Shown here: positions 45,557-63,802 of the stretch, in pieces
How the letters are laid out: every line of letters starts with the position of its first letter
How positions within the stretch are numbered: position 1 is the first letter of the stretch
Assembly: GCA_024640315.1 (NCBI GenBank)
Contig: JAHEFF010000006.1
Span: 10,169-74,168, forward strand
From: Woeseiaceae bacterium
Lineage (GTDB): Bacteria > Pseudomonadota > Gammaproteobacteria > Steroidobacterales > Woeseiaceae
DNA length: 64,000 nucleotides
Direction of reading: 5' to 3'
Translations under genes and position numbers: made by a program
The notes under the pieces: generated by a model
Told to the model about the DNA's origin: nothing
Database searches by the model: none
The model's input: the letters and a program-made list of their open reading frames with translations, nothing else

Positions 45557-47032
45557 CTAGGGCCGCGCAGCGAACTCGAAAATCTGCTCGAGCGCCCTGG
45601 CGACCGCGAGCAGATCCCGGTCCGACCCTTCCGGGCCGTCGATTTCGATGCCCACGGGCAAGCCGCCAGCGGTCAGACCGATTGGCAGGCTGATTCCCGG
45701 CAATGCGGCAATACTCGCCGGATCCGTATTGTGAATGTAGGTCGGAAACGTCGGTACCTGTTCGCCATTCAGCTCGACCGATTCCTGGCTGCCTTCGATC
45801 GACCTGGCGGGCAACAAGGTCGTTGGAAAAATCATGCCATCGAGATCATTCTCATCGAAGTATTTGCGAAACATGCTGCGCATTTCTTCTCGTGCAGACA
45901 GGGCGTTCCTGTAAACCGGTTCCGGCACCTGCCCTTCGACGGTACCGAGCATTTGAAACAAGCCCTGTACATCGGGGCTTGCTGCAGCCGCACCTATCGC
46001 CGCGAAGTCCTTGCCGGTTTTGTACCGCTCAAGATAAGCCGGAAGATCAGCCACAACCTCGTACAAAGCGATCGGAAACGCACTTTGTGTATTTAGCCCG
46101 CCAACATCGCCAGGCTCCACGTCAACAAGCGTTACCCCGGCATCGCGCAACTTGCTGAGTGCCGCTTCGACGGCTGCTGACAGCGACTCATCGACATTTT
46201 CAAAGTAATAGTCTCGGGCAACACCGAGGCGTATATCCGTCGGCGATTTCATTGCAATGCTCGCGCCGCCCGGTTCGACGACCTGGTCCATAAGGATCAC
46301 GTCGGCGACATTCCTTGCGATGATTCCTACTGTGTCGCGGGTATGCGATATCGGCGTGACAGCGGACGAGTCATAGCGATCCGTGCTTGGGCGAAATCCG
46401 ACAACGCCCGTCAGCGCAGCCGGGATGCGCACCGAACCGCCGGTGTCGGTGCCAAGACCAGCCGGCGCCAGTCCGGCAGATATCGCAGCAGCCGTGCCAC
46501 CGCTGCTGCCGCCGGCAAACAAAGACGTATCGAACGGATTCGCAACGGCTCCATAAGCCGCGTTGTCGCTGGTGATACCGAATGCCAACTCGTGAAGATT
46601 GGTCTTGGCAAGAATGATTGCCCCGGCGTCGCGCAAAGCAGCGACCGCCGGACTATCGGCAGCGGGCGTAAAATCTGCCAATCCGGGCGTGCCGGCAGTA
46701 TTCTTCAGTCCTGCGACGTGAATATTGTCCTTTACGACCAACGGGATACCGTGCATCGGTCCCAGCACATTGCCCTGGCTTCGCATTTCGTCGAGTTCAA
46801 GCGCACGTTTCATCGCGCCGTCTGCATCGATGGTAATGAAAGCGTTCAAACCATCGGCCTCCGTCGCACGACGCAGTAGTTCAGTAACAATCGCAACGCT
46901 CGTGGTTTCACCCGCTCCCAGCATGGCAGCCAGCTCCGTTGCAGCCGGATAGTCGGGCACGGGTTTCATCACCTGTTCCTCGGCACAGCCGAACATCAGC
47001 GCTGCCATTGCCAGTAAAGAAATATTCTTCAT
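45557..47032 (-). CDS. amidase-signature family amidase, lipoprotein/periplasmic
   Basis: 491 aa. Lipobox LMFGC and amidase signature GGSSGGTAAAISAGLAPAGLGTDTGGSVRIPAA. Confidence 0.9.
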   Translation of the reverse strand: MKNISLLAMAALMFGCAEEQVMKPVPDYPAATELAAMLGAGETTSVAIVTELLRRATEADGLNAFITIDADGAMKRALELDEMRSQGNVLGPMHGIPLVVKDNIHVAGLKNTAGTPGLADFTPAADSPAVAALRDAGAIILAKTNLHELAFGITSDNAAYGAVANPFDTSLFAGGSSGGTAAAISAGLAPAGLGTDTGGSVRIPAALTGVVGFRPSTDRYDSSAVTPISHTRDTVGIIARNVADVILMDQVVEPGGASIAMKSPTDIRLGVARDYYFENVDESLSAAVEAALSKLRDAGVTLVDVEPGDVGGLNTQSAFPIALYEVVADLPAYLERYKTGKDFAAIGAAAASPDVQGLFQMLGTVEGQVPEPVYRNALSAREEMRSMFRKYFDENDLDGMIFPTTLLPARSIEGSQESVELNGEQVPTFPTYIHNTDPASIAALPGISLPIGLTAGGLPVGIEIDGPEGSDRDLLAVARALEQIFEFAARP

Positions 47033-48588
47033 GAATTCTCGCCTGTTTCACTTCTGACCAATTGCGCAGAATACGCAGCACGATCAATTTGTGCTCGAGC
47101 ACTATTGTCCGCGACGGATACCAGGATCGTCACAGCAAATGCAGCAGCAACTGAAAATAATGTGGGATAGGCGTACGGAAATATCGCCACCTTGTTACCC
47201 AGCACATTGACCCAGACCGTCGGGCTAAGGACCACCAGTACAATAACCACAACGAGCCCCGTCACGCCGCCTGCAACAGCACCCCGGGTCGTCAGGCCTC
47301 GCCAGAAAAGCGCAAGAAATATTGCCGGGAAATTAACACTCGCGGCAATAGCCAGCGCGATCGTTGATAACACTGCAACATTGACGTTCTTGAACAGAAC
47401 GCTCATGCCGATAGCAATTGCGCCAATAATGACGGTGGCAATTCGCGACACCCTGACTTCGGCGTCGTCGGAAATATCGCCCTTGCGGATGACGCGGGCA
47501 TAGAAATCATGGGCCACGGCGGCCGATGCAGACAGGAGAATTCCCGCAACGACGGCGAGAATAGTGGCGAATGCGACCGCCGCAATAAGACCAAAGAAGA
47601 TCTCGCCACCAACCAGCCGCGACAGGTAAATGGAAACCATGTTGACGCCACCACTGATCCGCCCTGCGTCGTCGACATACTCCGGCTGGCCAATCAGCAA
47701 CGCGATCGCTCCTATCCCGACGATCATGATTGCAGCTTGAAAATAACCAATAATAACAACCGCATAGCCAATGGATCGACGTGCCTGCCTGGCGTCGGGC
47801 ACAGTAAAAAAGCGCATCAACACGTGCGGCAGGCCCGCTGTTCCACAGATAAATGCCAGGCCCAGCGACACAACGCTGATCGGGTCACTGTAGAGAACCC
47901 CCGGCTGAAATATACCTTTGCCCCTCGGATGCGCGTCGCTGGCACTCCGGAAAAGCGAATCGATGCTAAAGCCGAACTTCGATAAGACGAGCACCAGCAG
48001 CACGGTACCTCCGGCGAGCAACAAAACCGCCTTGGTGACCTGAACCCATGTCGTCGCCAGCATGCCGCCGAACACCACGTAAATCGTCATCAGCGTGCCG
48101 ACAATCAGTACCGCACCCAAATAAGGAATATTAAAAAGCGTTTCGATCAGGGAGCCGGCTCCGACCATCTGCGCGATCAGGTACGGTATCGCCACCGTCA
48201 GCGTTCCGGCGGCTGCAAGCACTCGCATTCGTTCCGGCTGCAGGCGAAAAGCAACAACATCTGCAAATGTATAGCGACCGAGGTTGCGCATTCGGTCCGC
48301 AAACGCGAAAAGAATGAATGCCCAACTGACGGTAATCGCCACCGTGTAGAGCATCGCATCGGCGCCGCCAATGAATGCGAGGCCGGTCAGGCCGAGAAAC
48401 GTCGCCGCCGACATGAAATCGCCTGCCAGCGCGAGACCATTCTGGAAGCCGGTGATTTTTCCGCCCGCCGTGTAAAACTCACCGGCGGAATGCGTTTTCT
48501 TTGCGGCCCACCAGGTAATGAACAGACTCAGCGATACGAATGCAACGAATACGACGATCGCCGTGACGTTTGTGCCACCGCCGATCAT
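47029..48588 (-). CDS. sodium:solute symporter (ActP-like monocarboxylate permease)
   Basis: 519 aa, about 13 TM. FYTAGG...GLALAGDFMSAATFLG is typical of ActP-type SSS. ATGA coupling on both sides. Confidence 0.88.
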   Translation of the reverse strand: MIGGGTNVTAIVVFVAFVSLSLFITWWAAKKTHSAGEFYTAGGKITGFQNGLALAGDFMSAATFLGLTGLAFIGGADAMLYTVAITVSWAFILFAFADRMRNLGRYTFADVVAFRLQPERMRVLAAAGTLTVAIPYLIAQMVGAGSLIETLFNIPYLGAVLIVGTLMTIYVVFGGMLATTWVQVTKAVLLLAGGTVLLVLVLSKFGFSIDSLFRSASDAHPRGKGIFQPGVLYSDPISVVSLGLAFICGTAGLPHVLMRFFTVPDARQARRSIGYAVVIIGYFQAAIMIVGIGAIALLIGQPEYVDDAGRISGGVNMVSIYLSRLVGGEIFFGLIAAVAFATILAVVAGILLSASAAVAHDFYARVIRKGDISDDAEVRVSRIATVIIGAIAIGMSVLFKNVNVAVLSTIALAIAASVNFPAIFLALFWRGLTTRGAVAGGVTGLVVVIVLVVLSPTVWVNVLGNKVAIFPYAYPTLFSVAAAFAVTILVSVADNSARAQIDRAAYSAQLVRSETGENS

Positions 48589-48881
48589 CGGTGTTTATCC
48601 TGCTCGAGTGCCTCGTCCGCCTCAAGCCGATTCACCACACGGACATAGACCATTGAAAGCACGATTGACATCGCAATGATCAAAAACCCGACCGCCATGC
48701 CCCAGGGAAGCGCGATGCCCATGAAGGGTGCCGCATACGCTTCAGCGAAATAGATGCCGCCGATTCCCCAAACAAGGTAGGCGCCGATCAACAAACCGGA
48801 TAGTCCCCAGCGCCACCGGCTGCGGCGGACGAGAAGTCTCTGAAATTCCGGATCCTTAAGTAGTTCCGTCTCTCCGCCCAT
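48585..48881 (-). CDS. DUF485 (YjcH-like) inner-membrane protein
   Basis: 98 aa with two TM helices and FQRLLVRRSRWRW. It is the usual partner immediately upstream of ActP-type symporters. Confidence 0.85.
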   Translation of the reverse strand: MGGETELLKDPEFQRLLVRRSRWRWGLSGLLIGAYLVWGIGGIYFAEAYAAPFMGIALPWGMAVGFLIIAMSIVLSMVYVRVVNRLEADEALEQDKHR

Positions 48882-48894
48882 TGATCCCTCGCTT

Positions 48895-49341
48895 TTAGTT
48901 ATTTTTTGTCAGCTCGGCTGCCAGCAATGGTAGCTCATCGGCCAGGCTGTTGAGGATAAGTTCACGCGCTGCGGCGGGATCAGGTTCAGGATCGTCTCTT
49001 AACGAGGCCACTTCCGCTTCGGTAAACGGCTCAAACCGGTCGGGCAACTGACCCTCACTGTAAGTCTGTAACAACCAGTTCATCAGCTCGGCGATTTCGC
49101 TGTCACTCAAAGCAGACCTCGACACACCAGGCACCCGGATCAGGAAGTCCCTTCCCTCTTGCGAGTGAAGGAAGTAACCGGAGAAATCTTTAATCGGTGG
49201 CACCCTGCCTTCGAAGCCAGCGGCCTCCGGCAAATGACATCCCTGGCAATGCAACATGAAATTTACCTCTGCACGCCGGTCATCGGCGAGCGCACAGCTG
49301 CCCAGCAGCGCAACGAGGACTGTCAGTCGGGCTAGGGCCAC
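48895..49341 (-). CDS. monohaem c-type cytochrome (paralogue of 49332..49832)
   Basis: 148 aa, GTG start, signal peptide. Single CQGCH, followed by LPEAAGFEGRVPPI...GRDFLIRV, which is shared with the neighbouring cytochrome. Confidence 0.75.
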   Translation of the reverse strand: MALARLTVLVALLGSCALADDRRAEVNFMLHCQGCHLPEAAGFEGRVPPIKDFSGYFLHSQEGRDFLIRVPGVSRSALSDSEIAELMNWLLQTYSEGQLPDRFEPFTEAEVASLRDDPEPDPAAARELILNSLADELPLLAAELTKNN

Positions 49342-49832
49342 TTGTCGCCGTGCTTGCTGACCAACTCACTTCTGAGCTGACCGGCACCTGCCGGACTCTT
49401 CTGCGTAATGCCAGCCTGAACCTTTTCGACTTCTTCCGCGGCAAATGGCTCGATCCCGGATGAATCCGCATCATTTAGCTCGAAGACGACGTAGTTAAGC
49501 GCTGCCGCAATATCATCTGCTGACATTGCGCCCGTGTTGCCTGCCATAACACCGAAGTATTGCATGCCGTCGACCTTTATCGTGCCCATGAGACCGTAGG
49601 TCACCACGGTGATGAGATAGTCACGCCCACCCTCCAGTCCCGCAATCGTTGCCGCCCGATTCCTGATCGGCGGAAAAGCACCGGGCACGCCAGCGCCATC
49701 AGGCAGATGGCAAGCCGAGCACGTCGCGAAAGCGTCGGCGCTGTATTCGCCTGAACTTTCGTCCGCAACCGACAAGCGCCCGATCGAAATCGCAAGCCAG
49801 CCCGCTACTACAATCCAGAGAAAGCGTTTCAT
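49332..49832 (-). CDS. monohaem c-type cytochrome
   Basis: Trimmed to MKRFLWIVVAGWLAISIG (ATGA overlap with the light-chain stop). Single CSACH, followed by LPDGAGVPGAFPPI...GRDYLITV. Confidence 0.8.
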   Translation of the reverse strand: MKRFLWIVVAGWLAISIGRLSVADESSGEYSADAFATCSACHLPDGAGVPGAFPPIRNRAATIAGLEGGRDYLITVVTYGLMGTIKVDGMQYFGVMAGNTGAMSADDIAAALNYVVFELNDADSSGIEPFAAEEVEKVQAGITQKSPAGAGQLRSELVSKHGDKWP

Positions 49833-50353
49833 TCGTCGAGCGCCGCGCCGATGACAATCGCAGTCGAGCAGTGATAAGTATTGCTGCTCGTGCCAAGGCA
49901 CCAATTGAGGTCATTGGAAACGCGCGGGTTGTATACCGGCCGATCACCTTCATTCCGCTGACAGAGGCAGTTGCCGCAGGACGACTTACCGCAGCAGTCG
50001 TTGTACGAAATGATATAGCTCTTGCCATCCACCGGGTTCTCGCAGGTACCGATCCAGGTAATCGGTGACATTTCGGTTCCTGGTGGGCAGGAATTCATCG
50101 AACCACCGCAGCAGCCGCAAAGAAAACCATCGATCGCACAGTAGCGCCAGTACTCGCAGCTTGCAGGATCACCCTCTTCCCGGGGAGCAGGGTTTTCCTG
50201 CGATCGGGCAACGGGAAGAAGCGGTACGGTGACGGCACCACCGACAACCACGCCTGCCACTTTGCCAAGGAAACCGCGCCTCGACGTTTTTTGCGAAATA
50301 CTGCGTGCAGTATTTTCCGCTGTCTTATCAAGCCATCCATCCAGCCATTTCAT
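49829..50353 (-). CDS. mauA: TTQ-dependent amine dehydrogenase, light (small) subunit
   Basis: 174 aa. Tat-like leader SRRGFLGKVAG and Cys-rich core CEYWRYCAIDGFLCGCCGG..CPPGT..SPITWIGTCENP..DCCGK..NDLNWCLG. Both TTQ tryptophans are conserved relative to MauA/AauA as I recall them. Confidence 0.9.
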   Translation of the reverse strand: MKWLDGWLDKTAENTARSISQKTSRRGFLGKVAGVVVGGAVTVPLLPVARSQENPAPREEGDPASCEYWRYCAIDGFLCGCCGGSMNSCPPGTEMSPITWIGTCENPVDGKSYIISYNDCCGKSSCGNCLCQRNEGDRPVYNPRVSNDLNWCLGTSSNTYHCSTAIVIGAALDE

Positions 50354-50373: not shown

Positions 50374-51510
50374 TTATTCTGCGCCGTACAGCATCAGCAC
50401 CGTTTCGGCGGCGAAGTTGTTGAGTGTTCTCTGGTACTCGCCACTTTTGGCAGTGTATATATCCAGTTCGAGATTGACATTCGTGACCAGCAACAAAGGA
50501 TCGTCATCGTTTGTCATTCCCATGCTGATGGCAGGCAGCTGCAATTCGATGCGGTCGACGCGACGTTTATTCTCGACGTCAAATACCCACACCTCCGTGC
50601 CCGGGTCCTTGTGCGACCCTTCGTAGCCATCAGGATGCATCAATACATACATCCGGCCGTCGGAATCTCTCTCGGTCACCTGGATGCCGCCGGGTCGCCA
50701 TCCCTCGTCACCGTCGCCAAGCAATGACCATTCCCGACCCACTTCCGGTTCCGAGCCATTCAGATCAACAGGAACGACGCGACCAAGAAAAGTCGGAAAA
50801 TAGGCAACACCATCAATCATTACCGCTTTCTCCATGATCGGATCGTTGTTCGCGTCGAAGAACACGCCGGTCCTGGCAGTTGATGCCTGCTCACCGTTTT
50901 CATCGAGTTGTACGCTCATCATTGAACCATCGGTGCACAACGACGCAAAAGCGCGTCCCGCCATCGGGTAAACCAGCGAGCAACCCGGAATTGGTATTTC
51001 CGCAAGGAACTCACGATTGACGATGTCGACCACTGAAACCGATGTCGCCGGCGTGAAGTTATAAATCAACGCCAGCTTTTCGTCGTCCACCAACTGGAGG
51101 TGGTAATTCGTCGGCATGGCGCTTGCACGTTTTGGCGGGATCACAACCTCGCCAATCGGCGCCAGATTGTCCTTGCCATAGATCGTCAGTACGTCCGTGC
51201 GTTCACCGCGCGACCCCCGTGAACGAAAGGTCTCGAGAATGTACATCTCGGGCCGGGTGGTCGCCTGGGTGAACTGCGCTATGAATGCGCCATTGAATAT
51301 GCCTTTAACGCGCGTCGCCGCATCATCCGATTCCGCATCAAGCACGTAAAACTTGCCATCGCTCATGTGAAAGAAAGCCACGTCGTGGGCAATAATCCAG
51401 TGTGCCGGCCATGGCGCCGGCAAGGTCTGAATCACGCCCGTTGGTTCGGGCTGAACCTGCCCGAACGCCGACGACGAGAATATCACTGTCAATAATATTA
51501 ATTGTTTCAT
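50374..51510 (-). CDS. mauB: TTQ-dependent amine dehydrogenase, heavy (large) subunit, 7-bladed propeller
   Basis: Has RGERTD, GWRPGG and overall colinearity with MauB. Start chosen at MKQLILLTVIFSSSAFG (51510, 4 nt after the ALDH stop). The track start 51528 is the alternative. Confidence 0.87.
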   Translation of the reverse strand: MKQLILLTVIFSSSAFGQVQPEPTGVIQTLPAPWPAHWIIAHDVAFFHMSDGKFYVLDAESDDAATRVKGIFNGAFIAQFTQATTRPEMYILETFRSRGSRGERTDVLTIYGKDNLAPIGEVVIPPKRASAMPTNYHLQLVDDEKLALIYNFTPATSVSVVDIVNREFLAEIPIPGCSLVYPMAGRAFASLCTDGSMMSVQLDENGEQASTARTGVFFDANNDPIMEKAVMIDGVAYFPTFLGRVVPVDLNGSEPEVGREWSLLGDGDEGWRPGGIQVTERDSDGRMYVLMHPDGYEGSHKDPGTEVWVFDVENKRRVDRIELQLPAISMGMTNDDDPLLLVTNVNLELDIYTAKSGEYQRTLNNFAAETVLMLYGAE

Positions 51511-51514: not shown

Positions 51515-52933
51515 TTATGCCGCTGCATTGATTATCTTGATCGAGGTATATGCCGCCAGTCCCTCCTCGGCGAACTCAACACCAAGGCCCGAGCACTTAA
51601 TGCCGCCAAACGGAACATGCGGTTGAATCTCGGCATGCTTGTTGATGAATACGGTGCCCGCTTCAAGTCGCGCCGCGACCCTTGCACACTCATCCGCATC
51701 CGATCCCCATACCGATGCATCGAGACCGAAGTCGAGTGCATTTGCACGCTCGATCGCATCGTCGATATCGGTGTAGGTGATGATCGGCAGCACAGGCCCG
51801 AACTGTTCCTCGTCCACCAGGCGAACGCCGTCTGATATACCGGTTACGAAAGTCACCGGGTAGAAATAGTTGGGGCCTCCTGTCGGCTCGCCGCCTGTGA
51901 CACAGGTGCCGCCATTCGCCTTGGCGTCTTCGACCAATTCGATGACACGCTTGAACTGGCGCTCATTCTGCAGTGGCCCGAGAATGCTGCCCTCATCCAT
52001 GCCGTCGCCCATCGGAATATTCGCCGCAAACCCGGACAATGCTGCCACCGTCGCGTCGAGATCATCCTCGTGTACATAAAGTCGTTTCAGTGCCCCACAG
52101 GTCTGACCCGAGTTGATCATCGAGCCAAAGAACAGGCCTTCCGCAAACTTCGCGGGATCTTCCCCAGGCAGCAAGATGCCGGCATCGTTGCCGCCAAGCT
52201 CCAGTGTCACTGGCGTGACGCCTTCCGCCGCGCTGGCCATGACCTTTTTGCCGGTCGCGATGGAGCCGGTGAAGACGATCTTGTCGATACCTTCATGGGT
52301 CGTCAGTTCGGCACCAAGTTCGTCGCCACCGGAAACCACGTTGACCAGGCCCGGCGGCAAGACTTCGTTAAACAACTCAATCATTCGCAACGTGCTAAGC
52401 GGCGTGAACGGAGACGGTTTGATGACGACTGTGTTGCCCGTTCGAATCCCGGGAACGATATGCCAGATTGCGATGATCAGGGGCCAGTTCCACGGAGTGA
52501 TCGAGCCAACAACACCGAGCGGGACTCGTTTCTGGATCACATGCCGTTCATCACTGTCCTCGATGACTTTGTCGGGCAAACTCAATGAACCGGTATATCC
52601 CGCCCAACCGGCACAACCACCCATTTCGAACCTTGAACCAATGCCACCAAGCGGTTTGCCCTGCTCTTTGGTCAGTAACACCGCAAGCTCATCGGCGTGC
52701 TCGGTACAAACGCCGGCAATCGCATTGCAGGCGTTCACGCGTTCTTCTTCGCTGGAAAAGCGCCAGGACTTGTAAGCCTTGGCTGCTGCAGCAATTGCCT
52801 TGTCCAGGTGTTTTTTTGTGCCTACAGGTGCCTGACCGACGACCTCTTCTGTGTTTGCGGGGTTTCGAACATCCACGTAGGAATCCGCGGTTACGGTCTC
52901 CCCACCAATTGTCATCTCGTATTTCTTACTCAT
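51515..52933 (-). CDS. NAD(P)+-dependent aldehyde dehydrogenase
   Basis: 472 aa. Contains FTGS...GKKV, LELGGND and GQTCGALKRLYV (catalytic Cys). Confidence 0.92.
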   Translation of the reverse strand: MSKKYEMTIGGETVTADSYVDVRNPANTEEVVGQAPVGTKKHLDKAIAAAAKAYKSWRFSSEEERVNACNAIAGVCTEHADELAVLLTKEQGKPLGGIGSRFEMGGCAGWAGYTGSLSLPDKVIEDSDERHVIQKRVPLGVVGSITPWNWPLIIAIWHIVPGIRTGNTVVIKPSPFTPLSTLRMIELFNEVLPPGLVNVVSGGDELGAELTTHEGIDKIVFTGSIATGKKVMASAAEGVTPVTLELGGNDAGILLPGEDPAKFAEGLFFGSMINSGQTCGALKRLYVHEDDLDATVAALSGFAANIPMGDGMDEGSILGPLQNERQFKRVIELVEDAKANGGTCVTGGEPTGGPNYFYPVTFVTGISDGVRLVDEEQFGPVLPIITYTDIDDAIERANALDFGLDASVWGSDADECARVAARLEAGTVFINKHAEIQPHVPFGGIKCSGLGVEFAEEGLAAYTSIKIINAAA

Positions 52934-55237: not shown

Positions 55238-55238
55238 G

Positions 55239-56051
55239 TCAGGAAGATCCCTCCAGGTCCTTGATGCCTTCCATTTCTTCAAGAAACACCGGGCTCTCCG
55301 GCAAGGTTGAACCGCCGTCGATACAAATCGTCTGCCCGGTGATGTAACGCGCCTCGTCGCTGGCGAGATAGAGCATGCAATAAGCGATGTCCTCCGGCGC
55401 ACCCATGTAGCCGCTCGGAATATATTTCGCCATCTGTGCAAGTCCTTCCTCGTCCGCCAGCAATTCCATCGCAGCGGTCCGGATATACCCCGGCTCTACA
55501 CCGTTGACGGTTATGTTCTCGCGCGCCAGCTCCAGCGCCGCCGTTTTAATGAATGCGTTCATGCCACCTTTGGATGCGGCATAGTAGGAAGTGCCCGGCA
55601 TCGCCACTCGCGGACCGGTAACAGACGACGTAAACAGGAGCCGGCCACCGCCACGTTTCCTGAAATGCGGGATCACGGCTTTTGAAAACCGGAAGCAGGC
55701 TTTCAGGTTCACCGACAACACGGTTTCGAGATCCTCTTCGTTGTAGGAATCGACCGGTCCGCCGAGGAACGATGCCGCGTTGTGCAACATGATGTCGACA
55801 CCGCCCCATTTGTCGACGGTTTCAGCTACGGCGCGGTCGACGCTCGCGACATCACCGATATCGATACCACACAATTCCGCTTCGCCACCGGACGCGCGAA
55901 TGTCATCGACAGTTCGCTGTCCGTTTTCCGGTGTGCGATTGACCACCATGACCCTGGCCCCGGCGCTGGCAAAAACCCGCGCAATTCCGGCGCCGATGCC
56001 CTGACCGGAACCCGTCACGATCGCTATTTTTCCACTGAGATCTGCAAACAT
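55239..56051 (-). CDS. short-chain dehydrogenase/reductase
   Basis: Trimmed to MFADLSGKIAIVTGSGQGIG. Has NAAS and YAASKGG. Confidence 0.87.
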   Translation of the reverse strand: MFADLSGKIAIVTGSGQGIGAGIARVFASAGARVMVVNRTPENGQRTVDDIRASGGEAELCGIDIGDVASVDRAVAETVDKWGGVDIMLHNAASFLGGPVDSYNEEDLETVLSVNLKACFRFSKAVIPHFRKRGGGRLLFTSSVTGPRVAMPGTSYYAASKGGMNAFIKTAALELARENITVNGVEPGYIRTAAMELLADEEGLAQMAKYIPSGYMGAPEDIAYCMLYLASDEARYITGQTICIDGGSTLPESPVFLEEMEGIKDLEGSS

Positions 56052-56055: not shown

Positions 56056-57252
56056 TTAATCCGTAACGGCGGCGGCCGCACCAAATGTTTTTGACTGCAT
56101 CAGTACCGGCGGCAATATCAATAGCAGGCTGAGAACGAAGAGGCCTGCACCGAACCAGTTGACGTTGATGTACTCGCCTTCCGAAATGACGGATGCGGCA
56201 AGTGCGGGACCAATCGCAAGTCCGACCATCTGCATGGCGACGGCATACACAACAACCCTGCCACGCCGGTCGAAACTGGCCATCGCGCCGAGGAGAAAGG
56301 GATGGGTCATGTTCCAAAGGAAGTTATAGACACCGACAGCCAGTGCAAAGACGATAAATTCGAAGGTGCCGAAAAGAAAATACAGACAAAGTGCACCGCC
56401 AAGAATACCGACTGTCAATGGAATCGAACGACCGACCTGATGGGCAATGACTGCCGCAAGTAATGCGCCACCGATGCCGGCAAATTGCGAAATCATGAGC
56501 CCGTTGGCAACCGCCTGCTCGCTCAGGCCGCCGGAAACGCCGATGAGGAATAAATACGCCCAGACAACGCCCTGCGCCATGAAATACGCGAGCATTGCGA
56601 ATAGCGCCAGGCCTTTCATTTGCGGCGACAGGTTGACCGCGTCCGCCTCCACATGTGCGTCGACCTCACCCGATACCGGGAAGTTTCTGATGAATGGAAC
56701 TGCCGCGAGCGGAAACAGCGCGAAGAACCAGATCACACCGTTAAAGCCGAACAGCTCATACGCGGTTGGCATTGCCCAAAGCACAATAGCGCCATAGGTG
56801 AGCACCCACATAATCAGAAAGCCAAAGTTTCGATCGGGGTTTTTGGTTAAACCCACAGCAGCAAAACTTAGTGACACAAGACTGCCGGCACCCAGCCCTG
56901 CGATGAACCTGAGTGCAACAAAAGCGTTGAGGTCAGTGCTCACCGTGCAGAGAAGGTTTGCCAGAAACATCACAAGCAGCGACCAGAAAACGACTTTTCG
57001 CCAGTTCACACGATGCGCCACAAAAGTCATCAGTATGGTCGTTGCGGCGAGGCCAAACATTTCTGCCGATGCGACATACCCTGCGCCCTGATCGTCGAAT
57101 CCGAGATACACGACCAGGCCCTGCACAAATCCCGGCTGCACGATAAATACTTCAGGCGCGATGACACCGACGAGGAACATGCTGAACAAGGCGCCTCGTG
57201 AATTGAGGTCCACCGGGTGGTCGTTAGCGAAAACCCTGTTAAGTATCGCCAT
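56056..57252 (-). CDS. MFS transporter
   Basis: 398 aa, about 12 TM. Paralogue of 61417..62589 (shared QPGF[VI]QGLV.YLG and SAEMFGLA). Confidence 0.85.
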   Translation of the reverse strand: MAILNRVFANDHPVDLNSRGALFSMFLVGVIAPEVFIVQPGFVQGLVVYLGFDDQGAGYVASAEMFGLAATTILMTFVAHRVNWRKVVFWSLLVMFLANLLCTVSTDLNAFVALRFIAGLGAGSLVSLSFAAVGLTKNPDRNFGFLIMWVLTYGAIVLWAMPTAYELFGFNGVIWFFALFPLAAVPFIRNFPVSGEVDAHVEADAVNLSPQMKGLALFAMLAYFMAQGVVWAYLFLIGVSGGLSEQAVANGLMISQFAGIGGALLAAVIAHQVGRSIPLTVGILGGALCLYFLFGTFEFIVFALAVGVYNFLWNMTHPFLLGAMASFDRRGRVVVYAVAMQMVGLAIGPALAASVISEGEYINVNWFGAGLFVLSLLLILPPVLMQSKTFGAAAAVTD

Positions 57253-57256: not shown

Positions 57257-58942
57257 CTAGTAGCCGCTTACCCAGTCGGGAATAATCACGTTGTTCGCCT
57301 TTGAATACTCTTCCCACATTGCTTTTAACGCGGCAACGGTCTCCGGATGATCAAGCGAGACGTCATTCGATTCGCCCGGGTCTTCATCAATATTAAAAAG
57401 CTGCCAGTCGTCATTGCCATATGGCGCAGGCATGTGAACGAGTTTCCATTCGCCGCGTCGGATAACGCGTTTGCCAAATAGTTCCATCCCCGTCACCCGA
57501 TCCCTGGCAGCCGAACTCTCACCGCGCAGAATTGGCAGGAACGATTGCCCTGTCATCGGCTCGATGGGTCGACCCTGGTATTCATTGCCCGGATGCCTGA
57601 CGTCGGCGATTTCGAGAATTGTTGGCGTAATATCCTTGATGAATACGAATTCATCGACGAGTTCCGGCTCCCCGACCAGGCTCGGTAAACGGACAAATGC
57701 GGCAACACGAGTACCACCTTCTGTCGGGAATGCTTTGTGCAAGCGAAATGCTGGTGAGCCCGCATTCGCCCAGTTCGGCCCGTACAGAACATAGGAGCCC
57801 GGTCGTCCCATCGCCTCGTAACTAAAGTCATGGGTCGAATCTATTGTCTTGCGGATATCCGGAAACAGATCCATTGACCAGGTTTCATCGAGATCATGGC
57901 CCTCCGGACCATTGTCGGACAGGAAAATGATCACCGTATTGTCGAGTTTGCCGCTCTCTTCGAGGTAATCGATCAGGCGCCCTGTATGCCGATCGACTTC
58001 GTTGATCATCGCGGCATAGATCTCCATCGCTCGCATTTCTGTCTTTTGCTGTGCAGTGGTTAGCTCGTCCCACGGCCTTTCCTTGGGCGAACGAGCGCTG
58101 CGACGTGCATCAGCCGGGACAATTCCCATTTCCTTCAGGCGTTCGAGACGGGCATCTGCAATCGCGTCATAGCCTGAATCGTATCTCCCCGCCTGCCGCG
58201 CAATCGCATCATCCGGCGCCTGCAGCGGCCAGTGTGGTGCGGTAAACGACAGATAGCCGAAGAAAGGTTGCTCCGGCTCACTGTCATCACTCAGGTACCG
58301 GATCATCTGATCAACGTAGTATTCTGTTGAATAGTCAAAATCGCCCGGCAAGGCGTCCAGTTTGACGCCGTCTTGCGAATAGTTTGCCTTGACGTCGGGC
58401 GAAGGCGCGTAGGCCGGCCGCATGTCCCCGAAGTGACTCGCGCCACCGGTATCAAGAACGAAAGATCGCTCAAAACCGCGATACGCAGCACCTTTGCCAA
58501 CACCGGATCCGAGGTGCCACTTGCCTGTCATGTAGGTGCGGTAGCCGGCGTCTTGCAGCAACGTTGGCAACGAAACAACGCGCTCGTTCAGAAAACCTTC
58601 ATAGCCTGGCTGCCCTGTCTGATTGGGAGCCAGTTCCTCGAGCATATTTCCAAGCCCGGCAAGATGTGAATCAACACCGGTCAGCAGCATCGACCGACTT
58701 GGTGAGCATGTGGACGCGGCATGAAAGTTGGTAAATCGAATGCCTTCAAGTGCGAGACGATCGAGATTTGGCGTTGCGATCTCGCCACCGAAGCTGCCGA
58801 GATCAGAAAAACCCATATCGTCGACAACGATGAGCAATATGTTGGGCCGATCCGGAGCGGCGTCAGGCGATACCGTTTCCGGGCCCTCGCCCATACAGGC
58901 GGCCAGAAGAAGAATGATCGATAACTGAATTAGACGTCGCAT
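57257..58942 (-). CDS. arylsulfatase (Cys-type), lipoprotein
   Basis: 561 aa. Lipobox ILLLAAC, NILLIVVDDMGFSDLG, the FGly motif STCSPSRSMLLTG, and GKWHLG. Confidence 0.9.
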   Translation of the reverse strand: MRRLIQLSIILLLAACMGEGPETVSPDAAPDRPNILLIVVDDMGFSDLGSFGGEIATPNLDRLALEGIRFTNFHAASTCSPSRSMLLTGVDSHLAGLGNMLEELAPNQTGQPGYEGFLNERVVSLPTLLQDAGYRTYMTGKWHLGSGVGKGAAYRGFERSFVLDTGGASHFGDMRPAYAPSPDVKANYSQDGVKLDALPGDFDYSTEYYVDQMIRYLSDDSEPEQPFFGYLSFTAPHWPLQAPDDAIARQAGRYDSGYDAIADARLERLKEMGIVPADARRSARSPKERPWDELTTAQQKTEMRAMEIYAAMINEVDRHTGRLIDYLEESGKLDNTVIIFLSDNGPEGHDLDETWSMDLFPDIRKTIDSTHDFSYEAMGRPGSYVLYGPNWANAGSPAFRLHKAFPTEGGTRVAAFVRLPSLVGEPELVDEFVFIKDITPTILEIADVRHPGNEYQGRPIEPMTGQSFLPILRGESSAARDRVTGMELFGKRVIRRGEWKLVHMPAPYGNDDWQLFNIDEDPGESNDVSLDHPETVAALKAMWEEYSKANNVIIPDWVSGY

Positions 58943-58951
58943 CGCAGGATC

Positions 58952-58982
58952 GGAACGGGAGCACGGATAGTGCCCCCGTTCC
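58952..58982 (-). other. GC-rich intercistronic stem-loop between the TBDR and sulfatase genes
   Basis: ggaacggg-a-gcac-ggata-gtgc-c-cccgttcc: 8+4 bp with one mismatch. No T-tract. It ends 9 nt before the sulfatase ATG. Confidence 0.4.
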
Positions 58983-59002
58983 TTCAGTCTTTCTGCCCTC
59001 GA

Positions 59003-61345
59003 CTAGAACGACAAACGTGCGGTAAGACCGAACATGACCGGCGGCGCATAAAACGTTGTCACGCCAAGGTCACCGAGGTCCAGCGAATACATTTTGTAGG
59101 TCTCATCGGTGAAATTCCGGACCCACGCCGTCGCACTGAATCGCTCTGAGTCACTCATATAAGTGAGACGGGCATTCGAGACGTTGTACGCTTTCTGCAC
59201 CGTGCCGGTTCCGTTCGTTACCTCGAGGAACTGGTCATCGTTCCAGTTACCGTCGATCTGGGCCGCAATATTGCCCCCCAGGGCGTCGAAGTTATAACGG
59301 ATCAGGTAGTTGAAGCTGAGTGGCGGCGCATTCGGAAACTCGACATTGTTGATGTCAGCCGGCGAAGGTGCTCCACCAACCGGCGAATTAACGCCGGCAA
59401 TTCTGTCAACTTCGGTATCCATGACGGCGGCACCAAGCATGATGTCCCAGTTGTCCGTCGGGAACAGGTACCACTCGATTTCGCCGCCGACCGCCGATGC
59501 ATCGGAGTTGCCGACAAACGGACCGCCACCGGCCAGCGAGAATGCCTGGTAGTCTTGGTAGTCGTAGTAATAAACCGTCGCATTCAGGCGCGAACGCTCA
59601 AAGTCGGACTTGAATCCCGCCTCGTAAGCAAGTACGACTTCCTCATTGTGACGGAAGTTAACCTCCGAGATATTGGCGCCGACACCAGTGGACCAGTTGC
59701 CGCCCTTGATGCCACGGTTGACGGAACCGAAGATAATGGTCGCATCCGAGAGCTGGTAATTGAGCGCAAGACGTCCGGCCCAGTCGCCATAGTCAATCTC
59801 GTCGACACCCGGATTCAGGGCTGCTCGTGCAGCGCTGGACTCGACAAGCAGGGCGGTCGGATTGAAATTATCCCTGAAGAAGATCTGCTGATTGATATCC
59901 TTGTCGTCCTGCGACCAGCGGAGGCCCGCGGTCAGAGTCAGGCTATCCGACAGATCGAAATCCGTCTGGCCGAATATTGACCAGTTCCTCGAATTGAGCA
60001 GGTACAACTGGTCGCTGACGGCACCTTCAAAACCGTTGAACGGATTAGCGGTCGGTATACCCGTTTCGACACCACCTGCCGCGAGCACCTTGCCTGCAAT
60101 CAGCAGGTTGCCGAACGCGGGAGCACCGGTCACCGTTGTACCGTTGTCACCTTCGATGTCCATATAGAAGGCGCCAACCTGCCAGCGTGATTTGTCAGTG
60201 TCGCCGGACCAGCGAAGCTCCTGCGACCATTGTGAGTAGTCGATAAAAGTCTGGAATGTCAGGATCGGCACAGCAAGTGCGTCTCCGTCTTCGTCATAGA
60301 ATTTATCGATGCCCAGGTAATTGGTAATCGAGGTGAACTCAGTCCCGTTGTCCATCGAGTAGTCAAAGCGCGCAGTCAGGCTGGTCTGCTCACGATTCAG
60401 AATACCGGGATGCTCCGCGTAGTTAAGGTGCTCGTCCGTAATCTGGCCGAACAAATCGATGACGCCGGGGCTGGTTACGGCCCTGCCGTACTGGTCCGTC
60501 GGGCACAATCCGTTTGCATCCAGCTCGCAGTTCTCGAAGACGTAGCCTCCTGTCGGGACGTCATTGTCCTCGGCATACTTAACCCAGAAGTTGCCCTGCA
60601 ACTTGTCGGAGAAATCGACCTGCATCGTTGCACGGAGGCCGTACCCGTCCGCACCACCGATGTCCTGTCCGCTGCCCGGGAACAGGAGCGGCCCGCCACC
60701 CGGCAGGAATGTATCGACGGACTCAACGTAGCCATCCATCTCCGACCAGCGGCCGGCAACCCTGGCGCGGACGTTGTCGCTCAGGCTCCCGCCTACCGCG
60801 AATTCGAGACCTGTGCGGCCGTAATCACCCACCTCGGCCTCGACATAGCCATTGGTATCCTCGTCGGAGGCATCCTGGCTGATGTAATGAATCAGACCAC
60901 CCGTCGCGTTGCGGCCAAACAGCGTGCCCTGCGGGCCACGCAATACCTCGACGCGCTTCATGTCGAACATCTGCCCGCTTATGCCATTCATTGATGCCAC
61001 ATAGGCATCATCCATGTATACGGCGATCGGCCCTTCCAGGTTATCGGTGAAAGAGTTCTGCGAGATACCGCGAATGTTGAAAATCGTCAGGTTCGGCGAC
61101 CAGGCATTCAATGACAGCGCCGGAATCTGCTGCGTGATTTCCGTGAAGTCCTTGATGCCAAGCGCATTCAGCTGATCGCCGGTCAGCGCCGTTACAGAAA
61201 TCGGAATCTCCTGGAGATTCTGTTCCCGTTTCTGCGCCGTAACGACCACTTCCTCAAGTATCTGGGCCGAGCCACTTGCCGGTAATCCGACCGCTGCAAT
61301 TGCCGCGAACAATATCGACGGCTTCCATAGGTTGTTAACTTTCAT
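59003..61345 (-). CDS. TonB-dependent receptor
   Basis: 780 aa with signal peptide, plug motifs (EEVVVTAQKREQNLQEIP, RVEVLRGPQGTLFGRN) and a terminal ..RLSF. Confidence 0.92.
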   Translation of the reverse strand: MKVNNLWKPSILFAAIAAVGLPASGSAQILEEVVVTAQKREQNLQEIPISVTALTGDQLNALGIKDFTEITQQIPALSLNAWSPNLTIFNIRGISQNSFTDNLEGPIAVYMDDAYVASMNGISGQMFDMKRVEVLRGPQGTLFGRNATGGLIHYISQDASDEDTNGYVEAEVGDYGRTGLEFAVGGSLSDNVRARVAGRWSEMDGYVESVDTFLPGGGPLLFPGSGQDIGGADGYGLRATMQVDFSDKLQGNFWVKYAEDNDVPTGGYVFENCELDANGLCPTDQYGRAVTSPGVIDLFGQITDEHLNYAEHPGILNREQTSLTARFDYSMDNGTEFTSITNYLGIDKFYDEDGDALAVPILTFQTFIDYSQWSQELRWSGDTDKSRWQVGAFYMDIEGDNGTTVTGAPAFGNLLIAGKVLAAGGVETGIPTANPFNGFEGAVSDQLYLLNSRNWSIFGQTDFDLSDSLTLTAGLRWSQDDKDINQQIFFRDNFNPTALLVESSAARAALNPGVDEIDYGDWAGRLALNYQLSDATIIFGSVNRGIKGGNWSTGVGANISEVNFRHNEEVVLAYEAGFKSDFERSRLNATVYYYDYQDYQAFSLAGGGPFVGNSDASAVGGEIEWYLFPTDNWDIMLGAAVMDTEVDRIAGVNSPVGGAPSPADINNVEFPNAPPLSFNYLIRYNFDALGGNIAAQIDGNWNDDQFLEVTNGTGTVQKAYNVSNARLTYMSDSERFSATAWVRNFTDETYKMYSLDLGDLGVTTFYAPPVMFGLTARLSF

Positions 61346-61416
61346 TTTTCTTTCCCCCCGAACCGGGTTGTTAGGTTCATAAACAAAATATCAATCAAAT
61401 ACAAAAAACTATCCCA

Positions 61417-62589
61417 TCAGAAATTTTGCGCCTGCCGTTGGGCCAGTATGCCCGGTAGTATAACGATTGCAGATATGACGAAAAGCACCACGCCTGTTGT
61501 ATTGACGAGATCGTAACCACCTTGTGTCAAAAGCTGAGCCGCAACATACGGTCCGATCGCGTAACCGACGAATTGCATCGAAACGCCATGGACAACGATG
61601 CGCCCCCGATGATCGAATTCCGCAAGTGTCGCCAGCAGGTACGGCATGCTCAGGTTCCACAGAAAGTTAAATCCACATACCGCCAGCCAGAAACCCGCTG
61701 ACTCCAGATGACCGACGAGCACATAGATGCTGGCAGCACCGCCGAAAATCCCGACCATGAGCGGCTTCAGCCTGCCGAAACGAGACTCGAACACAACGGC
61801 AAGAAATGCGCCCGCAATACCGAGAAACTGTGACGCGACCAGCGCATTGGCAACAGCCTGTTCTTCCATCCCCGCCTCGAGGCCAACCAGGAACAGGTAG
61901 GCCCAGACAATGCCGACTGCGACGTTATATATAAGTATGGCGACGAGCGAGATATTCTTGATCGCCGACTTGTAGTGCTTTTCATTTCCGGAATCGATAT
62001 GCGCCGCACCGGAGTCAGGTAAAAACCGGATGAAATACATTGCCGATGCACAAAAGAGCCCGAAAAACGCCAGCACACCATTCATACCAACGAGATGATA
62101 GGCGCTTGGCATTAGCAGCAGGCCGACCGCACCATAGATCAGCACCCAGCTGACAATGAAGCCGAAGTTCCTGTCGGTTCGTTCGGTCAGTCCAGCCATG
62201 GTAAAAGTAAGAGAGATCAAGCCACCGGATCCGAGCCCCGTAATGAAGCGGATGATACCAAGCGTCTGCGGGTCGCTTTGGCCCATCGAGGCGAAATTGC
62301 CAAACATACATACGGCAGCACACAGAACGAGAACGTTTCGCCATGTGACGCGCTCGGCGAACAGGCTCAGTAACACGGTCGTGGTTGCGAGGCCGAACAT
62401 TTCGGCAGCGGCAATCTGGCCGGCCTGTTGCTCTGTCATTCCGAGATATTCAACCAGCCCCTGGATAAAGCCGGGCTGCAGAATGAAAACACAAGGACCG
62501 ACGACGGCGAGGTAAACAATCGCGACAATACAGCGACGACTGTTGACGTCGATTACCGCGTTCTTGTCACCGGTCAGGACTGCAAGCAT
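61417..62589 (-). CDS. MFS transporter
   Basis: Track ORF (TTG 62679) trimmed to MLAVLTGDKNAV, with AAGGA 6 nt upstream. About 12 TM. Paralogue of 56056..57252. Confidence 0.83.
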   Translation of the reverse strand: MLAVLTGDKNAVIDVNSRRCIVAIVYLAVVGPCVFILQPGFIQGLVEYLGMTEQQAGQIAAAEMFGLATTTVLLSLFAERVTWRNVLVLCAAVCMFGNFASMGQSDPQTLGIIRFITGLGSGGLISLTFTMAGLTERTDRNFGFIVSWVLIYGAVGLLLMPSAYHLVGMNGVLAFFGLFCASAMYFIRFLPDSGAAHIDSGNEKHYKSAIKNISLVAILIYNVAVGIVWAYLFLVGLEAGMEEQAVANALVASQFLGIAGAFLAVVFESRFGRLKPLMVGIFGGAASIYVLVGHLESAGFWLAVCGFNFLWNLSMPYLLATLAEFDHRGRIVVHGVSMQFVGYAIGPYVAAQLLTQGGYDLVNTTGVVLFVISAIVILPGILAQRQAQNF

Positions 62590-62672
62590 GTCTGTCCTTG
62601 CTAAGAGGCACCCTGAATCGCTCGCAGGGCGAATACAATCTGATGAGATTCTATGAGTTTGGCTTAAAAATA

Positions 62673-62701
62673 TTGACAATTCACGGCAATTTTTTGATAA
62701 A
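62673..62701 (+). promoter_or_regulatory. sigma70-type promoter candidate (TTGACA-N17-GATAAA) for the AraC-family gene
   Basis: A consensus -35 and a 4/6 -10, 34 nt upstream of ATG 62735, in the 145-bp divergent region. A second ATTGAC copy occurs at 62701..62706. Confidence 0.3.
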
Positions 62702-62734
62702 TTGACTCAAATCTATTTTAAGCGTTAAACATAG

Positions 62735-63802
62735 ATGATTCCCAGGCAACCCACCGTTACCAGCAGGACCGAGCCGACGATCTCCTACCCCTTCGTCACG
62801 GCACTTTGCGATGCGGTCGGTGATGCCGAGCCGGTTGTGCGGGATGGCTTGCAGCACTTCGAACTCACTGAGCTGGCCGAGGATGTAACCCGTGTGCCAC
62901 TAAAGCGTTACATCGGGCTTTTCGAATGGCTGGCCGACAAACTGGATCGGCCGTACCTGGGACTGGAGCTTTCGCAACAAACCGGGCCCGAAACCCTGGG
63001 CGCTATCAGCTACATGTTTCTGGGTTCACGAAACCTTGAAATGGCGATCAGGAATTTCAGCAACTATCTCCTGGCGGTGCAGGACAATTCCCATATGTAC
63101 CTGGGTATCGATGGCGAATACGCCTTTCTCGATTATGGCATCCTTGATCACCGCATCACCCACCGCCGCCAGGATAGCGAGTATTCGATCGGTTACGTCT
63201 GGCGACTAATCCAGATTTTCGCTGCCAACTCGATTGGCCTGACCATGGTGGAGTTCGAGCACGACCGGCCAAAAGAAGGCGACAGTCCGTTTCGCCGCTT
63301 CTTTGGCGCTCCGGTATTATTCGGCCGCCGCGCAAATCGGCTGCACTTTCGAACAGAAGCGCTGTTGACGCCGTCACGCTCGGGCGACCCGCACCTGTTC
63401 CCCATCCTTGAAGCGCACATGCGGGACCTCGTTGCCCGTGCCGAGTCGATAGAGTCATTTTCAGACCAGGTCAGATCCCGGCTTAACCACGATGCACTTG
63501 GCAACGGCTTGCGGGCTGCCGCGATTTCAGCACAACTTGGCATTTCGCCAGCCACATTACATCGCCGACTAGGCAATGAGGGAACGAGTTTCAAGAATCT
63601 CCACGACGAGGCAGCCAAGGATCTCGCGAGCTTTCTGATGTCGCAGAAAAGCCTGTCCGTTGCAACCATCGCAAGGCGACTCGGCTATGCAGAGACTGCT
63701 TGCCTTACGCGCGCATTTCATCGTTGGTTCGGAATGTCGCCACGGAACTATAGAAAATCCCTGCAGCAAGAAACGAAACAACAGACCGGGGCAGGTTCTT
63801 AA
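62735..63802 (+). CDS. AraC-family transcriptional regulator with an N-terminal ligand-binding (Arabinose_bd-like) domain
   Basis: 355 aa. The C-terminal double HTH reads ISAQLGISPATLHRRL...SVATIARRLGYAETACLTRAFHRWFGMSPRNYR. Confidence 0.88.
   Translation: MIPRQPTVTSRTEPTISYPFVTALCDAVGDAEPVVRDGLQHFELTELAEDVTRVPLKRYIGLFEWLADKLDRPYLGLELSQQTGPETLGAISYMFLGSRNLEMAIRNFSNYLLAVQDNSHMYLGIDGEYAFLDYGILDHRITHRRQDSEYSIGYVWRLIQIFAANSIGLTMVEFEHDRPKEGDSPFRRFFGAPVLFGRRANRLHFRTEALLTPSRSGDPHLFPILEAHMRDLVARAESIESFSDQVRSRLNHDALGNGLRAAAISAQLGISPATLHRRLGNEGTSFKNLHDEAAKDLASFLMSQKSLSVATIARRLGYAETACLTRAFHRWFGMSPRNYRKSLQQETKQQTGAGS

Follow-up and report, generated by a model that had tools for sequence, protein, structure and literature searches.

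The window considered here is a stretch of 64,000 nucleotides (nt), corresponding to positions 10169-74168 of contig C16 of genome G000, an 85%-complete metagenome-assembled genome (MAG) of an uncultured marine-sediment bacterium of the family Woeseiaceae. Within it lies an array of 15 minus-strand genes, running from a transporter gene of the major facilitator superfamily (MFS1, 62589) to an amidase gene (45557), with an AraC-type regulator gene diverging from its head. The array is probably a conserved, modular catabolic super-operon of the Woeseiaceae for organic amines, in which a core route would be supplemented by periplasmic modules added by individual lineages. Genes were defined by open reading frame (ORF) listing and translation, families by Pfam, PDB and NCBIfam searches, and motifs were read directly from the translations. 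The features, in window positions, are as follows.

62735..63802, plus strand: AraC-family regulator, QhpR-like (Pfam Arabinose_bd and HTH_18), divergent from the array
62590..62734, no strand assigned: divergent control region of 145 nt between the AraC gene and MFS1, with a conserved block
61417..62589, minus strand: MFS1 transporter (MFS_1), accessory
59003..61345, minus strand: TonB-dependent receptor (TBDR; Plug and TonB barrel), cleavable-looking leader, core
58943..59002, minus strand: hairpin between the TBDR and sulfatase genes, 13-bp stem without a U-tract
57257..58942, minus strand: Cys-type arylsulfatase lipoprotein (Sulfatase domain), accessory
56056..57252, minus strand: MFS2 transporter (MFS_1), core
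55239..56051, minus strand: short-chain dehydrogenase/reductase (SDR) of amino-ketone/amino-alcohol dehydrogenase type (adh_short_C2), core
53957..55237, minus strand: amino-alcohol-O-phosphate phospho-lyase of class-III-aminotransferase fold (Aminotran_3), core
52947..53960, minus strand: APH-fold amino-alcohol kinase (APH), core
51515..52933, minus strand: NAD(P)-dependent aldehyde dehydrogenase (ALDH), cytoplasmic (Aldedh, 7.6e-132), core
50374..51510, minus strand: heavy chain of a tryptophan tryptophylquinone (TTQ) amine dehydrogenase (Me-amine-dh_H), cleavable-looking leader, accessory
49829..50353, minus strand: TTQ light chain (Me-amine-dh_L, 4e-53) with a twin-arginine (Tat) leader, accessory
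49332..49832, minus strand: monohaem cytochrome c 1 (Cytochrom_C, 3e-5; CSACH), cleavable-looking leader
48895..49341, minus strand: monohaem cytochrome c 2 (CQGCH; cleavable-looking leader ending LLGSC; no Pfam match)
48585..48881, minus strand: DUF485 (YjcH-like) membrane protein (DUF485), core
47029..48588, minus strand: sodium:solute symporter family protein (SSS), an ActP-subfamily monocarboxylate:cation symporter (SSF, 1.4e-96), core
45557..47032, minus strand: amidase-signature lipoprotein of indoleacetamide-hydrolase type (Amidase, 7.6e-98), accessory

An earlier note on this DNA had mapped these 15 minus-strand genes, their junctions and a hairpin in the 60-nt gap, and the ORF listing, a script and folding reproduced that map exactly, down to every coordinate and all 14 junctions. 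From 5' to 3' the junctions measure 71, 60, 4, 4, 1, -4, 13, 4, 20, -4, -10, 13, -4 and -4 nt (negative values are overlaps and -4 is an ATGA), and 12 of the 14 do not exceed 20 nt. Between the sulfatase and amidase genes the largest gap is 20 nt and five junctions overlap; since no gap is wider, this stretch is most likely a single transcript. An AT-rich gap of 209 nt follows the amidase gene. The hairpin in the 60-nt gap has a predicted energy of -29.9 kcal/mol (z = -4.4), and none of 200 shuffles folds equally well. A hairpin occupies the same position after the TBDR gene in G051, G012 and G454, followed by a terminator-like T-run in G012 and G454. MFS1 and the TBDR gene would be separated from the sulfatase-to-amidase stretch by termination or attenuation. 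The family and export assignments of the earlier note agree with Pfam, apart from cytochrome c 2, for which only the CQGCH motif is available, and the lipoboxes, Tat motif and haem motifs are visible in the translations.

Comparison with relatives covered samples of 121 genomes of the family and 400 of the class, and about 45 loci were fetched around homologues of the kinase, the TTQ light chain and the AraC regulator, onto which the window's proteins were mapped by tblastn. The earlier note had suggested a check of synteny, and the array does not dissolve in relatives: an identical 16-gene order is found in G012, of another genus (g13), at 47-78% protein identity, and a 10-gene version in G454, of another family, comprises TBDR, sulfatase, SDR, phospho-lyase, kinase, ALDH, TTQ heavy chain, TTQ light chain, cytochrome c 2 and MFS genes. 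That the array is a fortuitous juxtaposition, with independent operons lying head to tail in a long co-directional region, is extremely improbable. All large ORFs of 19609-62589 bar one lie on the minus strand, so co-directionality alone does not distinguish the array, and the strong hairpin past the TBDR gene would suit separate operons. A consensus promoter/terminator scan of 45000-64000 gave 12 matches versus 10.4 and 27 versus 20.3 in shuffles, with no match in the intergenic gaps of the array; as these counts are not above those of the shuffles, the scan is uninformative on transcription units. Nevertheless, the array is set apart by its tight junctions and by a synteny that is kept at such protein divergence in another genus, and partly in another family.

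The TBDR, MFS2, SDR, phospho-lyase, kinase, ALDH, DUF485 and SSS genes are present in every sufficiently contiguous array. MFS2 lies upstream of the SDR gene in 13 related arrays, ALDH is found in 19, and DUF485 and SSS are paired in 14. In genus g14 the order is TBDR, MFS2, SDR, ALDH, DUF485, SSS, phospho-lyase and kinase, and the array itself contains neither a sulfatase nor TTQ genes nor an amidase; a TTQ cluster containing mauE and mauD lies 7-17 kb upstream of this core on the same strand. Orthologues of the window's TBDR stand at the array head in G050, G114, G012, G051 and G110 (64-79% identity) and in G040, G081 and G088 (44-49%), and the g14 arrays are headed by a different TBDR lineage, 31-32% identical to that of the window. 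MFS1 is at the head in G110, G051 and G012 only. The array is a mosaic of the core and of accessory modules, namely the sulfatase with MFS1 and the AraC regulator, the TTQ genes with two cytochromes c, and the amidase. The earlier note had treated the sulfatase, TTQ genes, amidase, MFS1 and AraC as integral parts, a view that has to be given up, as they are absent from many otherwise complete arrays. In G081, a genome of 5.2 Mb with 4% contamination, the stretch from lyase to amidase is present in two copies with near-identical scores, on contigs C6 and C18 (L018 and L019); this could be a duplication, strain heterogeneity or a binning artefact.

The PLP (pyridoxal phosphate) enzyme of the core matches 5G4I, a 'phospholyase' of Arthrobacter, at 7e-123 and the human ethanolamine-phosphate phospho-lyase 6TOR at 1.8e-106, ordinary transaminases following at 1e-60 or weaker, and its PLP lysine lies in LGKPMG. 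Phospho-lyases are documented 1,2-eliminating members of the class-III aminotransferases (PMC8154272). The top NCBIfam models for this enzyme are kinase-aminotransferase fusions of about 1000 residues, which gives independent support for the kinase and phospho-lyase acting together. PbfA, a hydroxy-aminoethylphosphonate ammonia-lyase, was dismissed as the identity of the PLP enzyme, scoring 225 bits with the cut-off at 525. The kinase, whose gene shares an ATGA overlap with that of the phospho-lyase, matches 6EF6 at 1.2e-51, with the runner-up at 5e-18, and contains the motifs HxDxxxxN and IDFDD. The SDR matches 6CI8 and 6CI9 at 3e-59 and carries TGxxxGIG and YxxxK. With support from a reference list, the PDB titles being generic, we take 6EF6 and 6CI8/6CI9 to be the (S)-1-amino-2-propanol kinase and dehydrogenase of the Mycobacterium smegmatis RMM microcompartment. 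In the chemistry established for these families, a 1,2-amino alcohol first receives a phosphate on its carbinol from the kinase, and the phospho-lyase then eliminates phosphate and ammonia to leave an aldehyde. The earlier note had regarded the 'lyase-like PLP enzyme' and the kinase as finishers of a carbon skeleton; their matches to 5G4I, 6TOR and 6EF6 instead identify them as an amino-alcohol kinase/phospho-lyase pair. By homology, the core appears to be a microcompartment-less form of the known amino-alcohol kinase/phospho-lyase route. No bacterial microcompartment (BMC) shell gene (PF00936) was found in the 85%-complete genome or in the window, and EutB was not found in the genome.

MFS2, a 49% identical paralogue of MFS1, is a candidate amino-alcohol importer, and a search of a protein-cluster atlas with it returned generic 'MFS transporter' clusters only. 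The SSS protein scores 705.7 bits against the NCBIfam ActP subfamily model (cut-off 750), 626 against the ActP equivalog (cut-off 1099) and 481 against MctC, and its DUF485 partner is present. In total, three phospho-lyase paralogues and two kinases are encoded in the genome. A second phospho-lyase set, on contig C15 (L043:15-6308), comprises SDR, Amidohydro_3, lyase, MFS and kinase genes; a third phospho-lyase, on contig C98 (L079:5953-14365), is without an adjoining kinase and has CDP-alcohol phosphatidyltransferase, Met-zincin, SSS and Amidohydro_3 genes as neighbours. The C15 and C98 phospho-lyases are 46% and 53% identical paralogues, and each set has a hydrolase nearby. Frames of 716-782 residues spanning the kinase match in G014 (C30), G027 (C59) and G039 (C17) suggest lyase-kinase fusions in some Woeseiaceae, comparable to the 1015-residue NCBIfam model PRK06148.

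The sulfatase matches the Pseudomonas aeruginosa arylsulfatase 1HDH over its full length at 6.3e-159, with the sequence C-S-P-S-R of the Cys-type motif (C-x-P-x-R) and the lipobox LLAAC. Two formylglycine-generating enzyme (FGE) genes are located on other contigs of the genome. The sulfatase gene lies between the TBDR and MFS2 genes in six family genomes besides the window (G110, G081, G040, G012, G051 and G088), and beyond the family sample two further loci (L015 and G454) have the sulfatase. Its position in G102 is taken by alkaline phosphatase, M20 peptidase and DUF6152 genes, and it is absent from the arrays of G050, G114 and g14. Choline sulfatase was ruled out for this enzyme (97 bits against a cut-off of 433). 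In two relatives of the same genus, G040 and G081 (L011:2408-4956 and L012:2409-4957), the TBDR and sulfatase genes are separated by the insertion of a SnoaL-like gene and of a gene whose 677-residue product resembles flavin amine oxidases, whereby those arrays hold a third amine-oxidising enzyme. At the other end of the array, the amidase exceeds the NCBIfam cut-off for indoleacetamide hydrolase (NF005688, 569.7 versus 532 bits), with a GGSSGG motif and a leader containing MFGC, a loose lipobox. It follows SSS in both G081 copies, G040, G051 and G012, and is absent in G110, G050, G114 and genus g14.

TTQ dehydrogenases are periplasmic enzymes that convert primary amines into aldehydes by oxidation. 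The heavy chain of the array is closer to aromatic amine dehydrogenase (2.3e-52, 181 bits) than to methylamine dehydrogenase (1.5e-30, 110 bits), and the light chain matches the beta subunit of aromatic amine dehydrogenase at 2e-46. The alignment of the light chain, which has the Tat motif SRRGFLGK, keeps both TTQ tryptophans (TWIGTC and NWC), the DCCG aspartate and the cysteines. The maturation genes mauE and mauD are absent between the heavy and light chain genes of the array, where the gap is 20 nt, and were found in the genome only on contig C31. There, a second TTQ locus (L009:6665-12703, minus strand) consists of a canonical heavy chain, MauE, MauD, a light chain and a small cytochrome(-like) ORF, followed by M20 peptidase and MMPL transporter genes. 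As the C31 copies of mauE and mauD are the only ones found in the genome, they probably mature both TTQ enzymes. Four genes of the CCP_MauG family, at most candidates for MauG, are all on other contigs, none near either TTQ locus. Cytochrome c 1 travels with the TTQ genes across loci; cytochrome c 2 shares 38% identity with the cytochrome encoded behind the second TTQ locus and, from its lipobox-like LLGSC, may be a membrane-anchored lipoprotein.

The module of TTQ heavy chain, light chain, cytochrome c 1 and cytochrome c 2 genes lies between ALDH and DUF485 in nine related loci (eight genomes) besides the window, and the TTQ and cytochrome genes are missing from that position in G018 and genus g14. 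In G003 the module occurs without the core and adjoins a second TTQ cluster with mauE/mauD. Heavy chains encoded within arrays are 57-78% identical to that of the window, and those of clusters containing mauE/mauD 32-46%. TTQ light chains were found in 37 of the 121 family genomes versus 14 of the 400 class genomes, and one lies within 18 kb of the kinase gene in 13 of the 22 kinase-positive genomes (an identity of at least 50% defined kinase orthologues in the co-occurrence counts).

These distributions bear on the linear pathway proposed in the earlier note, in which a single conjugated amine is imported, loses its sulfate and acyl groups and undergoes periplasmic oxidation by the TTQ enzyme, after which the SDR, PLP enzyme, kinase and ALDH finish its skeleton in the cytoplasm. 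The predicted compartments agree with those given there, the junctions are tight, and the divergent AraC gene is conserved in six genomes. However, the amino group is gone after TTQ oxidation, yet the kinase/phospho-lyase pair needs a free amine beside the phosphorylated carbinol; moreover, many genomes have the core without TTQ genes, sulfatase or amidase, and G003 has the TTQ module without the core. Such a pathway is highly improbable. The broader proposal of outer-membrane uptake, periplasmic de-conjugation and cytoplasmic amine chemistry fits the comparison, in which lineages differ in the hydrolase that precedes MFS2 (arylsulfatase; alkaline phosphatase with M20 peptidase; none). The linear order does not hold, as the kinase/phospho-lyase pair deaminates by itself.

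As the kinase/lyase pair and the TTQ enzyme cannot act in series on one amino group, parallel branches are proposed. In the cytoplasmic branch, a 1,2-amino alcohol would be taken up, the SDR would interconvert amino alcohol and amino-ketone if needed, the kinase would phosphorylate the hydroxyl group with ATP, the PLP phospho-lyase would remove phosphate and ammonia to give an aldehyde, and the ALDH would convert this to a carboxylic acid. The kinase/lyase branch would serve beta-hydroxy amines and the periplasmic TTQ branch amines without a beta-hydroxyl, the two deamination branches converging on the single cytoplasmic ALDH, whose gene lies between theirs, in a topology like that of E. coli TynA and FeaB.

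The regulator encoded at the head of the array has QhpR as its top NCBIfam match (5.4e-65; 219.4 bits, under the 250-bit cut-off), covering both the ligand and helix-turn-helix (HTH) domains. Membership of FeaR, with which the earlier note had drawn an analogy, was ruled out, the match being confined to the HTH region; QhpR is far closer (5e-65 versus 2e-7). With a threshold of 60% identity, seven genomes including that of the window have an AraC orthologue, and in all six with an adequate contig (the window's, G110, G051, G088, G040 and G081) this gene adjoins the array head, be it MFS1 or TBDR, in divergent orientation. All six AraC-headed arrays have the sulfatase. At the same threshold, no orthologue was found in G012, G050, G114, G102 or g14. 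The control region at 62590-62734 contains a conserved block, TTGAYAATTC followed about 12 nt later by TTTTTTGATAAT, which is invariant in three genomes (the window; L048:2260-2403; L049:6407-6528). The block might serve as a promoter (TTGACA-17-GATAAA toward the AraC gene), as an operator, or in both roles. On the other side of the window's AraC gene is a separate unit with its own regulator, which reaches past the end of the window (C16:74000-80100, L080) and contains class-III aminotransferase, IclR regulator, ALDH and metallophosphoesterase genes; the aminotransferase and ALDH matches recur beyond the AraC gene in G110 (L048).

Downstream, the array is followed by an island comprising a second TonB-dependent receptor (TBDR2), a penicillin-acylase-type lipoprotein, a PaaK-type ligase, IorAB, a beta-oxidation-type operon and an iad auxin-degradation locus. 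The whole island is kept in G012, in the order iad, beta-oxidation-type operon, IorAB, PaaK, acylase and TBDR2, then the array, and it is partly kept in G081 and G110; in G110, the closest relative, SSS is followed directly by the PaaK-type ligase and IorA. G049 has five iad orthologues and an AraC-type regulator in the interval from the TTQ cluster to the core, with a PaaK-type ligase just past the TTQ cluster. Among the 121 family genomes the iad marker was found in 21 and the kinase orthologue in 22, and 17 have both versus about 3.8 expected by chance, a comparison that is descriptive only, as the genomes are related; in seven genomes the two are on one contig, 11-62 kb apart. PaaA and PaaC are encoded on contig C92. 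In G012 (L045:1613-2695) MFS1 is preceded, at a distance of 54 nt and in the same orientation, by a VanA-like Rieske oxygenase gene, and an FAD aromatic hydroxylase gene flanks the core in a Halioglobus MAG.

With regard to substrates, aryl compounds are favoured because of the arylsulfatase, the indoleacetamide-hydrolase-type amidase, the resemblance of the TTQ chains to aromatic amine dehydrogenase, the TonB receptors and the arylacetate/auxin island. Tentatively, and with a chance a little short of even, the array would act on aryl-ethylamines, aryl-ethanolamines and their O-sulfate or N-acyl conjugates, yielding arylacetates. A more specific scheme would have octopamine, noradrenaline and phenylethanolamine degraded by phosphorylation and phospho-lyase action to the arylacetaldehyde, with the TTQ enzyme handling the non-hydroxylated amines and both branches sharing one arylacetaldehyde dehydrogenase; the arylsulfatase and amidase would unlock the O-sulfate and N-acyl conjugates excreted by animals, and the arylacetates would feed PaaK and the auxin genes. 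In all its detail this scheme is unlikely. No description of a bacterial phosphorylation/phospho-lyase route for beta-hydroxylated aryl-ethylamines was found in the literature searched.

Alternatively, and this is possible if somewhat unlikely, the core may scavenge small aliphatic amines. Ethanolamine and 1-amino-2-propanol/aminoacetone, from lipid head groups and threonine breakdown, would be converted to acetaldehyde/propionaldehyde and on to acetate/propionate, ActP/YjcH would handle the acid, and the sulfatase, TTQ enzyme and amidase would be island neighbours for other nitrogen sources. The top characterised homologues agree with such a role, being ethanolamine-phosphate phospho-lyases (5G4I and 6TOR) and presumed aminopropanol enzymes (6EF6 and 6CI8), as do the ActP-like score of the SSS protein and the dispensability of the accessory modules. 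With no EutB found in the genome, the kinase/lyase pair could be its sole ethanolamine route, and the alkaline phosphatase ahead of MFS2 in G102 would suit phosphoethanolamine. Against this, two unrelated TBDR lineages have been recruited at the head of the core, which is unexpected for amines of 60-75 Da, and the hydrolase inserted in the uptake part is an aryl-type, not a choline-type, sulfatase. The C98 phospho-lyase paralogue, by its CDP-alcohol phosphatidyltransferase gene, is a better candidate for head-group turnover. In addition, the link to TTQ genes, iad and PaaK recurs in two gene orders and two families, and the core has aromatic oxygenase genes beside it in G012 and the Halioglobus MAG.

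A number of points weigh against the reading of the array as a super-operon for organic, and perhaps aromatic, amines. The characterised homologues of the core enzymes all use small aliphatic substrates, namely ethanolamine phosphate and 1-amino-2-propanol. The ALDH passes no equivalog cut-off, and aminobutyraldehyde, phenylacetaldehyde and betaine-aldehyde dehydrogenases score alike in both PDB and NCBIfam searches, because of which it cannot discriminate between aromatic and aliphatic substrates; the predicted ActP-like symporter fits acetate and propionate as products as well as arylacetates. The accessory modules, being dispensable, may have substrates of their own and merely share an island with the core. 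The earlier note had also suggested that the array could be one regulon under the divergent AraC gene; the position of that gene in six genomes supports this, but the hairpin or terminator past the TBDR gene speaks for two or more transcription units, or for attenuation, over one simple operon, and G012 has the same gene order, yet no AraC orthologue. Moreover, the relatives are not independent samples and most are fragmented MAGs. Finally, gene content, order, homology and conservation are what is observed, and transcription units, activities and substrates are predicted from them.

If the super-operon reading is correct, the array would join a known cytoplasmic deamination route to outer-membrane uptake, swappable periplasmic de-conjugating enzymes and a TTQ dehydrogenase linked to the respiratory chain. 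It would also offer a natural case of a TTQ enzyme sharing maturation genes in trans with a second locus. Should the substrates be aromatic, phenolamine and catecholamine signalling compounds would have a new catabolic route, and auxin precursors a sink in sediments; should they be aliphatic, a globally abundant clade would have an ethanolamine/aminopropanol route that depends on neither B12 nor a microcompartment. Woeseiaceae rank with the most abundant marine-sediment bacteria, and the kinase has thousands of close relatives in metagenomes.

Each module of the array is of a known kind and the conserved combination is new as far as the literature was searched, in which no description was found of a TTQ dehydrogenase without mauE/mauD within a shell-less amino-alcohol operon behind a TonB receptor, with an exchangeable periplasmic hydrolase. 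The DUF485 and ActP-subfamily pair, with its ATGA overlap, resembles that of Escherichia coli acs-yjcH-actP, although there is no acs gene here. P. aeruginosa AtsA (1HDH) is a cytoplasmic sulfur-scavenging enzyme; the sulfatase of the array shares full-length similarity and the Cys-type motif with it, but is a predicted periplasmic lipoprotein in a catabolic array. QhpR, which takes its name from the quinohemoprotein amine dehydrogenase (qhp) genes, is what the regulator matches best in NCBIfam, albeit below cut-off, and the array is without qhpABC genes. The E. coli tynA-feaB-feaR and paa systems are similar in combining periplasmic amine oxidation to an arylacetaldehyde with a cytoplasmic ALDH, an AraC-family activator and onward metabolism by PaaK and PaaABCDE; here PaaK is encoded in the window and PaaA/PaaC on C92. 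They differ in that E. coli uses a copper amine oxidase, a domain not found among the Pfam matches of the array, where a TTQ dehydrogenase with cytochromes c is encoded, and in that E. coli is without the kinase/phospho-lyase branch.

The aau and mau clusters, for the aromatic amine dehydrogenase of Alcaligenes faecalis and for methylamine dehydrogenase, have in common with the array the heavy and light chains, both TTQ tryptophans, the Tat leader of the light chain and a small cytochrome c downstream. In contrast to them, the array lacks mauE/mauD between the chain genes, has two cytochromes c and no cupredoxin partner, and embeds the TTQ genes in an amino-alcohol operon. The RMM locus encodes the same enzyme set as the core (Axen 2014, PMC4207490): the RMM1/RMM2 loci of M. 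smegmatis and Rhodococcus, which serve the utilisation of aminoacetone and 1-amino-2-propanol (see also Mallette & Kimber 2018), contain an SDR, an APH-fold kinase, an enzyme of class-III-aminotransferase fold and an aldehyde dehydrogenase, next to a permease. The array, by comparison, is without BMC shell genes, has an AraC-type rather than a GntR-type regulator and an ALDH of the ordinary NAD(P) type, and adds to this enzyme set a TonB receptor, an arylsulfatase, a TTQ dehydrogenase, ActP/YjcH and an amidase.

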